Source: Neolecta irregularis DAH-3 (lineage: Eukaryota). From it: a DNA stretch of 32,520 nucleotides. The DNA is taken from assembly GCA_001929475.1 (NCBI GenBank), contig LXFE01004361.1, positions 1 through 32,520 of the forward strand, in the 5' to 3' direction. Positions 10,356-30,012 of the stretch are shown one piece after another. Under the pieces are notes generated by a model. It saw nothing but the letters and a program-made list of their open reading frames with translations, ran no database searches and was not told the DNA's origin. The position numbers and the translations under genes were made by a program. Each line of letters starts with the position of its first letter. Within the stretch, counting starts at the first letter, position 1.

Positions 10356-12277
<1,922 letters not shown>

Positions 12278-13428: not shown

Positions 13429-14808
13429 ATGGGTGTCTCAGGTGGGTCTCATTTATTGTTAACATGAGCTTTACTTTATTAGATATCGTACCGAACGGTG
13501 TTCTTACTGGCGACAATGTTCTCAAACTTTTTGAATATGCTCGTGAAAAGAAGTTTGCTCTTCCTGCTGTGGTACATCTCTGTCTTAGTGTCATCCTACT
13601 GAGATAAATCTCAGAATGTTACTTCTTCATCAACCGTCATTGCTACTCTGGAAGCCGCAAGGGATAAGAAATCTCCTATTATCATTCAAATCTCGCAGGG
13701 GGGTGCTGCTTTTTTCGCAGGGAAGGGGATCTCAAATGCCCATCAAAAGGCATCTATTGCAGGTTCTGTTGCCGCTGCTCACTTCATCCGGGCGATTGCT
13801 CCATCTTATAATATTCCCATAGTCATTCATACAGGTATCTTATCACCTATCTGGGTATACTAAAGGTGCAGACCACTGCGCAATGAAACTTTTGTCTTGG
13901 CTCGATGGCATGCTTGATGCCGACGAGAAGTACTTCGAACAGCATGGGGAACCTCTTTTCAGGTGTCAATTATAACAAATTTTCTTTCAGAGCTAATTAT
14001 CCAGCTCGCATATGGTTGATTTTTCTGAAGAAACAAAGGAAAAGAACATTGAAATCACCAAGAAATACCTTCAGCGAGCTGCTCCTATGAAACAATGGCT
14101 CGAGATGGAAATTGGAATTACCGGTATATCACCAAATCGAAATTTTGGCTCACTTGAAGGAGGTGTAGAAGATGGCTGTGACAACACAGGCGTGACAAAT
14201 TCAAAGCTTTATACCCAACCGGAAGATGTCTGGGATGTCTACAGCACTCTCACTCATGTATCTCCTTACTTCAGCATTGCAGCTGCTTTTGGAAATGGGA
14301 AGATTCAATTTAAAGCCTTGTATGCTAATTTTCAAGTTCATGGAGTATATATTCTAAAAGTTCGTCTTGCCCCAGAGCTTCTTGAGAAGCATCAAGAATA
14401 TGCCGCCCATAAACTCGGCAAAAAGGGAAAGCCTTTGTAAGTGCTATTATCTACGTATCGTTGATATCAAGATACCTGGTAATGCACGGAGGCTCCGGCT
14501 CAACTCATGAGGAATTTCGAACTGCCATTAACAATGGAGTTATCAAGATCAATCTGGACACTGATCTCCAATATGCTTATTTGACTGCATGTACTCGATG
14601 TCTTCGGGTCTGATATGTATAGGGTGTGCGTGATTACGTACTCGCCAAGAAGGATTATCTCATGACTCAATGTGGGAACCCAGAAGGAGATCAGTTACCA
14701 AATAAATCGTACTATGATCCTCGCGTCTGGATTAGATACGGCGAGCAGACTATGAAGGTTCGAGTTGCTCAAGCTCTCGATGACTTTGGCGCTGCTGGGA
14801 CTTTGTAA
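13429..14808 (+). CDS. FBA1: Class II fructose-bisphosphate aldolase, 8 introns (one GC-AG, one apparent GG-AG)
   Basis: HTDHC, EMEIGITGG, FGN-VHG, HGGSGS, KINLDTD, YYDPRVW. Confidence 0.93.
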
Positions 14809-24087: not shown

Positions 24088-24952
24088 ATGACACGTCTGA
24101 CCTCCATTGTCTTATCTTTTATTCGGGACCAAGTATCGCCAGAAGTGAGGCCCCTGTTTGTGGGTATTAGTGGCCCGCAAGGATGGTAGGACTGGTGCAT
24201 ATCATGGTGACAAAATCTCCAGCGGAAAATCCACACTCGCTTCAGAGCTCCAAACTATCCTATCGCAGTCGCAACAGATCGTGGTTCTGTCATTAGACGA
24301 CATCTACCTTACCCATCAGGCTCAACTTGAGCTGTCTTCCAACTACCCAAACAATCCACTCCTTAAGCATCGCGGGCAACCGGGGACCCATGACATCACC
24401 CTGGGTATCTCTGTTCTTCAAAGCCTCAAGAATGGAATCGAGGTGTCGATTCCGAGATATGACAAATCTGCTTTCCAAGGAAGAGGAGATCGGTGTCCCA
24501 TTGAGCAGTGGGATCGAATCGGGAAAAGTGTCGATATCGTGTTATTCGAAGGATGGTGTCTTGGATTCCAACCCTTATCCCAAGATGAGTTGAGATCGCA
24601 ATGGGAAGAAGCGAAAAAGACGAACGATCCTATTCTCGGAATTCATGAATTCGATCATCTACAGTTCATGAACAAGCAGCTCCGGCAATATACCGCATTG
24701 TGGGGATTTCTCGATGTTTTAATCTCTGTAACTACAAATGACCCAAACTACGTTTATTCCTGGCGCCAACAAGCCGAATCCGCTCTTTGGAAAATGTGTA
24801 ATTCAGGAATGACGCGGGAACAAGTTCAAGAATTCGTCGATGGATATATGCCAGCATATAAGCTATACAAACCAACACTCAATGACATCAACAAGAAAGT
24901 ACTGCAAATAGTACTAAGCCTAGATCGACAAGTGATCCGAATAGAGAAATGA
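24088..24952 (+). CDS. Tda10/GLYK-like P-loop kinase (putative D-glycerate 3-kinase), 1 intron
   Basis: GISGPQG|CGKST Walker A, SLDDIY, RGQPGTHD, PRYDKS..GRGDR, FEGWCLGF, YSWRQQAE. Confidence 0.88.
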
Positions 24953-25179
24953 CCTGAAAAAAGCTTTCAGCCCAAGAATGGTACACAGTTTACGTCAAAG
25001 TGCAAACCACGCTGTTTTACCTCGCGAATCATTGATATCTAACCATATTCAACACGCAAAAAAGAATATTCTACCTAAACACCGAAAGAAAGCATAGCAG
25101 GAAGACGAAAGCGATTCAAGAACCAATCTCCACTCCTGCAAATGTCCCCTAACTGTGAATTTCATCTTGAAAATGTATG

Positions 25180-27404
25180 TTATACCCGTAGATGTTTGAT
25201 CTCCGTCATCGAGTCGTTTGGATCATCTTCATCATCATTTATCTCCCTGACTTCCTGTAGTATCTGGGCAGTAGAGTTTCTGCGTAGAGACATGTCAGAG
25301 AGCCCCTCAAGCCAACCCTGTCGTAAATCCGTGTCATTCCAAAGTTCAGCAAGCCGATGACGATATATATCCCCAAAAGAAAGTCCTAGTCTTTCGACTT
25401 TATCGAACAAGCAACGGACCCAAGAACGTAGGTCCAAGTCGTTTGTAAGACATATGGCGGCCACGCTATTCGTGAGAATTAAGGGAGAAAGTGGGCCAAC
25501 CAGAGATTGTGAGCGATTGCAACCAGGACCGAAGGACAATTTAAATCCGGGGAATCTAAACCAGCTACTATTTGGCATATTTTAAATGCGTAGTGGGAAG
25601 CGCGAGTGGACTCGGTAGAACTTTTGGAAAAAGAAGCCCCAACAGGTGTTGAAATTTGGAGCAAATAACTCCTCACAGTCCAGTAATCCAGCATCGATAC
25701 TCCCCTAAATCGTTAGCATTCATCAAGATGAAAAGAATTGTACATTTGCCAATGTTTATACCGAACCGGCTGGATGGGACAGCCGTAATTTACGGTCACC
25801 GTTTCTGGTGCATCTTCTTGTAGTAATTCTGGTGGGAGTTCATGGTACCATAGCAAGCAAAGCTCATCTAGGTTCTTGATTTGATGGAGTATATTTTCTG
25901 GTGTCAAGGTCCTTGCAACCGCACAAGCCGCTAGTTTAGCCGTTTGTAAAATGACATGTCGAAGGCGGGATTTTGCATATGCTGAGGAATAAGATATGAA
26001 GATCGTATCTAGCTGTACCAATTTCTTCGATTATGTCAGGGGGATTCTTTTCCGTGAGAGACTTTTCACGAGCTTTGTGGTCTCCGAGCCAGTAAACTTC
26101 ATCTGGGGTGTTGGGATTTGAAACAAAGTACAAATACCTAGTAGAGGAGGCTTTGCAGCAATGAGAGCACTTGATGCATCCATATGTGACAACCAAGAGA
26201 GTAGGGCTCGACCAATTGGATTCGATGTCCACGAGTGAGGCGTTCCAGTATCTGTGATAATTCGACAAGCACCAGCTAGATGTCGGTACCATTTTACGAA
26301 ATCTGCGAGGTATTCTGTTGAATCAACACCTGCGTGAGGAGGAGATACCTTCGTATAACGCCAGTGAAAGGACAGCAGCCAGTAGGAAATACTCCTGACC
26401 TTTGGTTCCAGCAGGAGATCTCAGTCCCTCCATAATCTCATTCACAGCCAAGTGATAAAACATCATGGCATATTCCAATTTGTTGATATCGTGAGTGACA
26501 CTATACAGCAATGCTGAGAACGCAACTCGAGAGTATAACAACGGTTGAGAGGTCTCTGCCATGGCCAATATTGTCCTCGAAAAGAAATGAACTTCATCAG
26601 TATCGACAAAGTGGTGGAAATGTGTGATGTACTTTACATGAAAGGCCATGAAAAACGATATTTGGTTTTTGTATTTGGGGTCGCCTCCAGGGAACGACGA
26701 AAGTGAGAAATGAGGAGAATCAAAAGGGAGACAGTAGTCGAATTGAGTCGCGGGAGATGATGGCAGGTCAATTGGAATATGCAGAGTTTGGCCGCCCAAT
26801 TCGTTTTGCTTAAAGACCCATCGCGAGGAATCTTTTGGGTTGTAGTCTTCAAGGATGCTGAGGGCTCTCTGGGTGCTTCGTTTGACGACTCGACCCGACG
26901 TTTTGGTTCCACCGGCCTTCAAGGAACCTTTCCTGGCTTTTACCAGGGCAGAGACTTTTGAGCAACTCGAGTCTCCCCGAGGAAAGTCCTCAGTATTCTG
27001 GCCGCGGGGGGTTTCGGGGTATAGCGGTCTTTCTGCGGGACTGGACAACTGAGCCAATGCTGGCGGGTCGGCATGTTTCCACACGCAGGTTCTGTTTCCC
27101 GGCTGGCAGTTCTTGCAGTTTGGCTTTTCCTCGCCGCACTACAGAATGCCATTAACACCACAGCATGCGCGAAGCAGGACACGCACCTTTACTCGCCGCT
27201 GGCGACATGTAAGACACCCCGACGTAAGCACGCGGACACGCAAAAGGAGATACCCGTTCTGCTTCGCCCACGCTTCTTGCCCTCGCTCGGCAGATCAGGC
27301 TCTTTTGGCCTGTCCGCCACGCCTGGGGGCAGCGCGAGATAGTGGCCAAAGGGCGCTGCGGGATTGTACGAGAGGGCGATGCGGGAGGACTGAGCCGGGG
27401 GCAT
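25180..27404 (-). CDS. Zn2Cys6 fungal transcription factor, 7 introns (the first needs a non-AG acceptor)
   Basis: KKRGRSRTG|CLTCRQRRVK|CGEEKPNCKNCQPGNRTC followed by a fungal TF middle region; all downstream exons join through 34-48 nt GT-AG introns. Confidence 0.82.
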
Positions 27405-27717
27405 GAAATGCGAAAACATGGATGCTCCAGCGAGCGACAGCAGTTTACAAGACACTCAAACACAAATGCGTCTTGGCTGGGACTGCTGAGGCAAACGGAG
27501 AGCCAGGGCAGGCGGTTGTGTTGCAGCTATATAAGCGCCGGCCAAGCAATCACGCGGAGCCGGACCCCAGCATGCTGCAATCTGAAGCTATTCCTCTCCG
27601 GCAGATGCCTAGTCTGGTCGGTGAGGAACGACAAGTGCGAACTGTGAGATGCAAATGCGTCGCTAGGCCCCATTAAAATGCAAACCACGCCATAAACACA
27701 AAAACCAGACAGTCATG

Positions 27718-30012
27718 TCACACAGCGCCTGCTTGCTCGTCCCTATTAATTTGCTGCACCCCAATGTTTCTACACAGCGGACAAGAATTACGCCCGGTTG
27801 TAAGCCACTATCAAATATCAGCCTCGTATTGACCGGCCACTTTACCTCATCAATACATTCGCGGTGGAAATAATGAGAACATTTCCCTAGCCGCCGCACT
27901 TGTTCGCCAGCTTCATAGTCGGACAGACAGACCTGGCATCGATCGTTCTCATGCACGACAGAATCCGAGTTGCCGACAATGGTAATGCCTCCAGCTGCAC
28001 TGACCTCTTCGGCAGACGCCACGGGCGGCTTTGCTTGGCCGATCAGAGAGCTTAGTAGAAGCATGTCTTCGTATGTTGGGGACTATCGTGATCAGCATGC
28101 GTAACAAACAAGGTTGAAGTGTACATCTGTAAACAAACTTGGCGTGGTGAGTATAGGGTGGTTCTCAGGGTAAGCTCCACCAAGCACATAGATTATCCAT
28201 GATCGAGTAGTTTGATCGTTGATAAGTCCAGATGGACGGAAAACTGGAGGCGAACGACCAAAAGGGACCGGAGGAATAGGACTTTGAGGCGGGGGCCCCT
28301 GTGGCGGGAAATTAGTGTCGTTTGTAGTTACCGGAAGCGCAGGTGGAGCAGGCGCGTGAGGATCCCAAGGAATTCCACTTTCAGAAAGCGAGACTTGTGA
28401 TTCTTCGGGAGAAGAAATAGCAAACTCGGGAGCATCGGCGAATTCATCATCTGTCGATTCACCTTCAGGTGTACTGGCGGGGCTTTCCCAGTAATCAGAG
28501 TTAACGCCGAGCATATCAGATGGAAATGATTGATTAGGAAGAGGGGGAGGCTGCGGTCCTCTAACGCGAGGAATGGCCCGTAATGGGGATGAATTAGATG
28601 CGACTGATGAAACTGACGGTGAAGAAACCTGAGTTGAGGTAGGATTGCCTCTCACTGGTCTCACCCTCTGGGAATTACTTCTTTGTATGGGTAGATTAGC
28701 CAAAGCGTCGAAAAATAGAGGAGTATCATTTGCCACAGGGCCGTTTGAGTCTCGAGGTGGTACCGACCGAATCCCAACAATAATGATAGGCACCATCCGC
28801 TGGGCTCCCTGCTGTCCTTCAATTTGCTGAGTGCTTGAGGCAAAACGAAACATTCGGAAAAAATTAAGGGGCGGCAGGTCCCCTTCCATCGTCTCAGAAG
28901 TAGATGCAGAAGTGCCAGTTAATTCTCGACCGCCATTTCGCAAAGCAGCGGCTAGCCGACCATTTTGAAGAGCTCGCAAGAAGCTTTCAAAGCTGCCATC
29001 GAGAAGAGAGTCATTATTTGAAGGAGCGGGCGGCTCTGACTGTTCAGAAGAGTTGCCAACCAAAGATGCTGCGGTGGCGCTCGCTGCGACAGACAGCAAG
29101 CGAGATAACATCGCAGCTTGGTCTTCACCAGGACGAAGCTGTGCGTCACCAAAACTTGTACTTTGTTGATGAGTTGGCCCATCTTGAGTGGACGCTCTAG
29201 AACTATTCCGATCGTCGCTGAAATATCGTGGTGGTCGGGGGGCGTGGGAGCTTCTCATGAGATGTCTGCGACTAGGACTTTCCCAGGTGGCGAGTTCTCC
29301 GCTTTCGCTAGATGAATTTGAGCCCCTAGTTGTGATTTCAAGGCGTCCATCGTGATCTCGATCTGCTGTGCGAGGCCTTGTGGGCTGTACAGACACGTTT
29401 GACGAGGAATTATTAAGTTCTCGCCATGTGGCCGCAAGATTTGTTGTAATGGAATGTCTGACCCTGGCTATCCTGCTTCTTACAGCAGGCTCCGTTACAA
29501 GATTAGATGCGGCACTGCGGTTACTCATTGGAGGAAGAGATGCTCTTCGCTGTTGCCTGGTTAGATCATTTCGGTTTCTCAATCTTTCCAAAAATCTCGA
29601 GTCCATTCCTCCCAATCTCGTTGAAGCTCTGCGAGATATTTGTGGACTGGGGTTGACTACCACTCGGCTGTTACGACGGGGGTTTAAACGTTCTATCATG
29701 CGAAATCGTTGTTCTCTCCGCCTATTGGCTATCAGGTCCAAATCCGAGAGTTCAGGGACGTCGGGCATAGGAGTATCTTCGCTGATTGTNNNNNNNNNNA
29801 TTTAAACGTTCTATCATGCGAAATCGTTGTTCTCTCCGCCCATTGGCTATCAGGTCCAAATCCGAGAGTTCAGGGACGTCGGGCATAGGAGTATCTTCGC
29901 TGATTGTAGAAGGCGGATGCGGCCGATTAGGAAGCATATTTCGTCTCCTTCGTGATGTGACTCTGTTTGGCCGGGGAGAGGAGTTTGCAGGCGAGGATGA
30001 AATTTGACCCAT
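27718..30012 (-). CDS. RING-H2 E3 ubiquitin ligase, 2 introns; interrupted by an assembly gap
   Basis: SWIIYVLGGAYPENHPIL, PTYEDMLLLSSLIG, CQVCLSDY...CSHYFHRECIDEWL...SCPLC; N-terminus MGQISS. Confidence 0.88.
29683..29907. other. Scaffold gap (10 N, 29790-29799) flanked by a 107-bp [17 protein letters not shown]
   Basis: 29683-29789 equals 29801-29907 with one mismatch; collapsing the two copies gives one continuous ORF. Confidence 0.9.

Follow-up and report, generated by a model that had tools for sequence, protein, structure and literature searches.

Neolecta irregularis DAH-3 carries, on the minus strand of contig LXFE01004361.1 (NCBI GenBank assembly GCA_001929475.1), a gene for a Zn2Cys6 transcription factor whose first intron starts with GT and ends in CGG. 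We analysed the whole stretch from position 1 to 32,520 of this contig (32,520 nucleotides, nt; the window), to which all coordinates refer. A mature RNA of the gene lacks exactly the 35 nt of this intron (intron 1, 27219–27253, minus strand), and the DNA-binding domain is in frame only in this form. We propose that intron 1 is an ordinary U2-type spliceosomal intron with CGG as its 3' site, placed by a very short tether, and we give this reading a probability of about 0.78. The result corrects a public gene model: NEOLI_001701, a protein of 591 amino acids (aa) without a DNA-binding domain, becomes a transcript-supported product of 667 aa with a complete Zn2Cys6 cluster. It also presents a natural GG 3' site that gives a productive messenger RNA (mRNA), with the putative branch only about 6 nt away.

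Sequence of intron 1

The original prediction, made from the letters of the DNA, had singled out a 35-nt GT...CGG segment without an AG at 27219–27253, and we found the sequence there as it had been quoted. Read on the minus strand, exon 1 ends in AGA ACG G, the 35-nt intron follows with GTATCT as its start and CGG as its end, and exon 2 opens with GGTGTCTTACATGT (GG TGT CTT ACA TGT). No AG occurs inside the 35 nt, and acceptor position -2 is a G (27220). A occurs twice in the intron, at positions 3 and 29, and only the second is usable as a branch. This A (27225) belongs to a GCTTAC motif at intron positions 25–30 and stands 6 nt from the 3' end. The cut can be drawn in five equivalent registers (CG..GT, GG..TC, GG..CG, GT..GG and TA..GG), all of which give an identical mRNA. 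The GT..GG register is the only one with a GT start, and no register has AG as its end.

Compared with what is expected of a U2-type intron, intron 1 has a GT donor of the local type and lacks the AG at its 3' end. In the GT..GG register its donor, GTATCTCC, is also that of the canonical intron 3, and its length of 35 nt compares with 34–48 nt for the gene's seven other introns. Intron 1 resembles the local introns in all respects except its last-but-one base.

When intron 1 is kept in, the frame shifts and translation stops after 76 aa, as had been claimed; when it and the other introns are taken out, the frame is open for 667 aa. The cysteine-bearing frame, which runs from stop to stop over 27139–27294, contains no Met and so has no ATG of its own, again in line with the original prediction. 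A canonical-looking alternative intron of 55 nt (27199–27253, minus strand) would keep the donor and end at a CAG within exon 2; another CTTAC lies 10 nt ahead of that CAG. Splicing of this alternative would remove cysteines 1 and 2, shift the frame and bring a stop after 108 aa. The path of the transcript contig described below differs from it, and the alternative may see minor use.

We considered whether intron 1 could belong to the U12 type, which is removed by the minor spliceosome and has GT-GG as a known non-canonical subtype. The 3' sites of U12-type introns are set by distance from the branch, and this is also how the 3' sites of the mammalian U12-type GT-GG introns are thought to be placed. 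Intron 1 appears to depart from the U12 consensus at both the donor and the branch: its donor GTATCTCCTT is loosely like the U12 donor, a partial match only, and the branch region GTGCTTAC differs from the U12 branch consensus. Moreover, the donor shared with intron 3 heads an intron with a CAG end and an ordinary branch motif, and an Rfam search of the window, which covers the window only, returned no small nuclear RNA matches. Mammalian introns of this kind do have the same terminal dinucleotides as intron 1: a compilation for human and mouse has eight U12-type GT-GG introns, that of ARAF being conserved (PMC1557818). Against this, the RNAs of the minor spliceosome are seemingly missing in Ascomycota, according to a study that did not include Neolecta (PMC2396436). 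We see only a very slim chance that intron 1 is of the U12 type.

Excision without a spliceosome, by an IRE1/ligase-type cut as in HAC1/XBP1 or by a tRNA-endonuclease-type cut, is scarcely credible. As in HAC1 and XBP1, the segment is short, its ends are non-canonical and the reading frame of a transcription factor changes when it is cut out, and CGG followed by G is common to both cut sites here. However, neither the minimum-energy nor the centroid fold of 27195–27285 contains the twin stem-loops that would place the cuts in 7-nt loops, and the stability of this fold is unremarkable (z -1.12). Intron 1, unlike HAC1/XBP1, looks spliceosomal: its donor is normal, its length typical and its branch-type A spaced as in the local introns. 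Its gene encodes a Zn2Cys6 factor, a different family from the bZIP proteins.

Transcript and genomic contigs

Two public runs, X1 and X2, contain the stretch, and we aligned the contigs of both to 24900–27700. At a word depth of about 437, the X1 genomic contigs have no letter that differs from the window; they carry the CGG, and the joined form is found in none of them. The X2 set consists of assembled contigs (20,248 records, 11 Mb). A single X2 contig of 8019 nt, at depth 402, covers the gene with no differing letters in each listed piece, about 2.5 kb of exon in all, and skips eight stretches: seven GT-AG introns and the 35-nt intron 1. The seven read CT..AC on the plus strand (GT..AG on the gene strand) and are 37, 35, 39, 37, 35, 34 and 48 nt long. 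The original prediction had counted six other introns and called them canonical; the second part stands, but their number is seven. The eighth skip is 27218–27252 (joint 27217 to 27253), with 4 letters that fit either side, a range that covers 27219–27253. The contig thus joins 27254 to 27218, in any of the five registers, which is the precise removal expected for a U2-type intron.

We infer that this contig derives from processed RNA because exactly eight intron-sized stretches are missing from it and their flanks are collinear. The words shared between X1 and X2 amount to 0.79, about as expected from the loss of intron words alone. No X2 contig covers the intron interiors, which says nothing on the absence of an unspliced form. 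Retained and frame-shifted forms may be cleared by nonsense-mediated decay; because that decay may remove the other forms, a dominant spliced contig is no proof of the efficiency of the site. Poor splicing of intron 1 may also hold down the output of the factor, one of the readings offered in the original prediction.

Protein product and the public gene model

Removal of the 35 nt supplies the DNA-binding domain of a Zn2Cys6/Fungal_trans_2 factor. The spliced product has six cysteines, spaced CX2CX6CX6CX2CX6C, behind a basic lead-in, and this arrangement is absent from the retained form. Against a zinc-cluster profile that we built from the clusters of 35 relatives, the spliced product scored 54.8 bits over profile positions 3–42, including the basic lead-in encoded by exon 1, and the retained form scored -0.3 bits; a score for the public model was not reported. 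The central claim of the original prediction, that the Zn2Cys6 domain can be made only by removing a GT...CGG intron, is therefore borne out, as the X2 contig skips exactly 35 nt and the product fits the family profile.

A single database protein is close, the hypothetical protein NEOLI_001701 of N. irregularis DAH-3 (P0001; 591 aa, 100% identical). Its start codon is an ATG within intron 2, in a different frame, and it joins the true frame via an invented GT-AG intron (27041–27084), by which the zinc cluster is lost. In a Pfam scan this protein matched Fungal_trans_2 (PF11951) at 62.7 bits (cut-off 21) and had no Zn_clus; exons 3–9 are common to it and the corrected product. A dynamic-programming gene finder restricted to AG acceptors made the same error: its model starts at 27152 and includes the intron 27041–27084. 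Non-AG introns can thus cost annotated domains.

A full HMMER search returned 203 relatives at E ≤ 0.001, all of them distant, with identities of at most 28% and a repetitive 2579-aa match as the sole exception. Among the matches listed, 33 of the 54 relatives of at least 550 aa have the six-cysteine pattern with R[TS][RK]xG before it; the lead-ins found before the pattern were RTRSG (27), RTKTG (3), RSRKG (2), RSRRG (2) and RTKSG (1). All eight relatives scanned with Pfam contain both Zn_clus (PF00172) and Fungal_trans_2. Of 2470 candidates in a word-index protein search with exon 3, the protein of the window itself was the sole match. One metagenome scan gave 161 pattern matches with no relatives among them, and a second gave no exact matches. 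We also tried reading the 3' end of intron 1 as a relic, with the cysteine frame running through ...TSG before the first Cys, and rejected this since it provides one extra family-matching residue only.

In three relatives from other fungi (P0006, P0034 and P0046), the protein starts partway through the zinc cluster and has the last cysteines only. This hints that gene models of the zinc-cluster family often get the N-terminus wrong where introns interrupt the cluster.

Branch spacing in the window

We counted branch spacing as the nucleotides after the branch A through the last intron base, as is done in PMC10711555. For the seven introns with RNA support, the distances to the nearest branch-like motif are 7, 7, 8, 8, 8, 8 and 13 nt; for intron 1 the distance is 6 nt. 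A further 28 introns were predicted in the window, false calls included, and 18 of these have the motif at 6–9 nt, compared with 1141 of 6522 control GT..AG segments (17.5%; binomial p about 5e-8). The original prediction had placed GCTTAC at the usual spacing of this genome. By sequence, the A of CTTAC in intron 1 does fall within the local range of 6–9 nt, but at its low end, as the RNA-supported introns span 7–13 nt.

In intron 8 (25149–25185, minus strand; 37 nt, GT-AG, skipped in X2), a CAG 3 nt past the branch-like A is passed over and a TAG at 7 nt is used. Two predicted plus-strand introns, 11538–11573 and 13835–13871, likewise bypass an AG 2–3 nt past the branch-like A for one at 7–8 nt. 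The bypassed close AGs suggest a minimum distance from branch to 3' site, with RNA support for the intron 8 case only.

Weight of the evidence

Several points count against the view that the spliceosome uses the CGG site. X2 bears the label 'DNA?', which is a guess, and an organism code that differs from that of X1, and its support comes as assembled contigs rather than as counted junction reads. A spliced X2 contig cannot reveal its donor's genomic base at 27220, and X1, possibly the window's own source, does not prove the G independently. A direct repeat of 4 nt, CGGG, stands on either side of the cut, as is also found in template-switch artefacts of reverse transcriptase. The spacing of 6 nt in intron 1 is shorter than the minimum of 7 nt among the seven RNA-supported introns, and also than the 7-nt minimum reported for yeast (PMC10711555). 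Finally, sequence-only scans did not establish the use of non-AG sites elsewhere in the window. The dynamic-programming finder, which placed 33 introns in 10 genes of the window (evident false ones among them), made 3, 1, 0 and 0 non-AG calls with NG acceptors at penalties of -2, -4, -6 and -8 and never recovered the true N-terminus. A filter on donor, branch spacing and coding flanks gave similar counts for the 16 end dinucleotides (AG 14, others 3–13) and missed intron 1. Because the target was missed and the counts were similar for all dinucleotides, such sequence-only scans are uninformative on the frequency of non-AG introns.

The first of these points would also fit an origin of the DNA and the RNA from different genotypes, in which the RNA donor would have a CAG or lack the 35 nt altogether and the CGG of the window would be null or leaky. 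The sample codes of X1 and X2 differ as well as the organism codes, the acceptor base is invisible in a spliced contig, and A-to-G at -2 is a classic inactivating change. However, the exon pieces of X2 show no difference over their 2.5 kb, the word share is accounted for by intron words alone, and no X1 contig has the joined form. Since X1 and X2 are of the same or a near-identical genotype, a difference at the one unseen base is unlikely, and we consider this explanation improbable, although with some small chance of being right. A recent inactivating A>G change, which the original prediction had offered as one possibility, does not agree with the existence of a spliced form whose exons match the window letter for letter; an A>G change that left the site active may have occurred.

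A base-call or assembly error at 27220, also raised at the outset, would mean that the true genome reads CAG, and one base change would indeed render the intron canonical. The X1 contigs were built independently at their depth of about 437 and are identical across the site, although they may go back to the window's own data. We give such an error next to no chance.

The junction itself could be an artefact, made by a template switch between the CGGG repeats or by an assembly mis-join. Besides the direct repeat at the flanks of the deletion, a hairpin can be drawn across the 5' junction. Its stability, however, is like that of shuffled sequence (z -1.12; 29 of 200 shuffles were at least as stable), and its base is off the cut position. 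The joined path is the sole X2 path assembled here, in a contig of depth 402, and 4 common letters are insufficient for a mis-join in an assembly based on 31-letter words. A random artefact would also not be expected to restore a conserved family domain and the 667-aa frame exactly. An artefact is thus highly unlikely, and removal of intron 1 by the spliceosome at CGG remains the reading that we favour.

Proposed mechanism

In published structures, the 3' site is read through pairing of its A(-2) with the branch A and of its G(-1) with the 5' site's G(+1), and position -3 is preferably a pyrimidine (10.1101/212811). For intron 1 we propose that branching takes place at the single available adenosine, 27225 in GCTTAC, and that the exons are ligated at the G six nt downstream of it. 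The short span from branch to 3' site, mostly 6–9 nt, would deliver a fixed position to the active site by geometry. CGG would preserve the pyrimidine at -3 and the G(-1):G(+1) pairing, so that of the three known contacts only that between A(-2) and the branch adenosine would be lost; the other two may be enough for ligation. The next AG is 26 nt from the branch, and its product is frame-shifted. Slu7 is reported to be dispensable at distances below nine nt between branch and 3' site (10.1101/212811), and work in yeast portrays Prp18 as a ruler by which a minimum distance is enforced (PMC10711555). Most likely the CGG site was derived from CAG via an A>G change that was tolerable owing to the short tether. 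That the 3' site might be set by distance from the branch had been suggested in the original prediction; the idea fits both the 6–9 nt spacing and the work in yeast, and we favour it, although we infer it only from these.

A broader form of this proposal holds that 3' site choice in Neolecta is made mainly by a fixed tether of 6–9 nt, with the AG helpful but not required. We regard this as doubtful and state it for its consequences. If it were true, non-AG introns would be far commoner in Neolecta than the ~0.04% of other fungi, and genes of Neolecta would be systematically cut short or put in the wrong frame by gene finders limited to AG, as NEOLI_001701 was. Neolecta would then have a natural spliceosome with relaxed second-step fidelity, similar to that of yeast lacking Prp18.

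Related introns in other organisms

GT-GG introns are already on record in fungi, and intron 1 adds one more case. In Ganoderma lingzhi, manual annotation found 38 among about 92,000 introns (0.041%), which makes them the third commonest non-canonical class of that species (PMC11590231), and in Fusarium graminearum GT-GG is one of the non-canonical pairs found by RNA-seq and confirmed by Sanger sequencing (PMC3577648). Across 130 fungal genomes, 98.7% of introns are GT-AG in a survey whose main text makes no mention of GT-GG (10.1101/616565). The G. lingzhi and F. graminearum introns are like intron 1 in that they look U2-type, with a GT donor and a GG acceptor, and are rare and transcript-supported; the two reports present counts and no mechanism. 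Unlike those cases, intron 1 is 35 nt long with a branch A 6 nt from its 3' end, its host is a member of Taphrinomycotina with ultra-short introns, and its removal is the sole route to the DNA-binding domain. Intron 1 thus stands apart by its very short branch spacing, by a host whose introns are ultra-short, by the dependence of the DNA-binding domain on it and by the resulting error in the public model.

The closest mechanistic parallel comes from Saccharomyces cerevisiae lacking Prp18, in which BG 3' sites (CG, GG or UG), such as UGG, are ligated with G(-1) kept, often under 10 nt from the branch and at 7 nt in the shortest case (PMC10711555). In yeast, these events are minor and mostly unproductive and are unmasked by deletion of a fidelity factor. 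In contrast, the GG site of Neolecta yields an assembled, productive mRNA in a wild organism. It is relevant to the extent to which exon ligation can rely on geometry in place of the contact between A(-2) and the branch adenosine, a matter studied so far in yeast mutants, and Neolecta, as an organism with unusually short introns, is suited to a genome-wide test of non-AG sites. Our literature search found no paper on intron architecture in Neolecta. The main text of the Neolecta genome paper has no occurrence of 'intron' or 'splic', and its supplements may hold intron statistics.

Gene structure and surroundings

The corrected coding sequence is 2004 nt long and lies entirely on the minus strand. 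Coding exon 1 (27254–27419) starts with the ATG at 27419–27417 and encodes the N-terminus and the basic lead-in ...RSRTG; its last codon is split in phase 1, and in X2 it belongs to the piece 27253–27700. Exon 2 (27187–27218) has only 32 nt and supplies cysteines 1 and 2 of the zinc cluster, within CLTCRQRRVK. Intron 2 (27139–27186; 48 nt, GT-AG) has a branch-like GTTAAT 13 nt from its 3' end and is skipped in X2. Exon 3 (26349–27138) encodes cysteines 3–6, a linker and the beginning of the Fungal_trans_2 domain. The remaining introns, all GT-AG and all skipped by the X2 contig, are intron 3 (26315–26348; 34 nt), intron 4 (26103–26137; 35 nt), intron 5 (25982–26018; 37 nt), intron 6 (25705–25743; 39 nt), whose joint was read with the cut shifted by 1, and intron 7 (25466–25500; 35 nt), followed by intron 8. 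The last coding exon (25116–25148) ends with the TGA stop at 25118–25116.

A GC-rich island at 26900–27650 (56–62% GC, compared with 42–48% in the remainder of the gene) spans the 5' end of the gene, including exons 1 and 2 and introns 1 and 2. The GC content is 64% in exon 1, 57% in intron 1 and 27–50% in introns 3–8. GC-biased substitution may have promoted an A>G change at the acceptor.

Within the gene, the X1 contigs break at 25765–25794, one of them with a 26-nt adapter-like loose end, a feature of the assembly and not of the genome. Elsewhere in the window, positions 1–1000 have 65% GC compared with 36–56% in the rest, and a 188-aa open frame in them has no Pfam match. Upstream of the factor gene and on the same strand lies a neighbour (27663–29789, minus strand) that has a RING-type zinc finger at its end (zf-RING_11, 35.9 bits; zf-RING_2, 33.7 bits) and is interrupted by a scaffold gap of 10 N at 29790–29799. 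The X2 contig continues unbroken past 27700 towards this RING-finger gene, and the transcripts of the two genes may overlap or read through.

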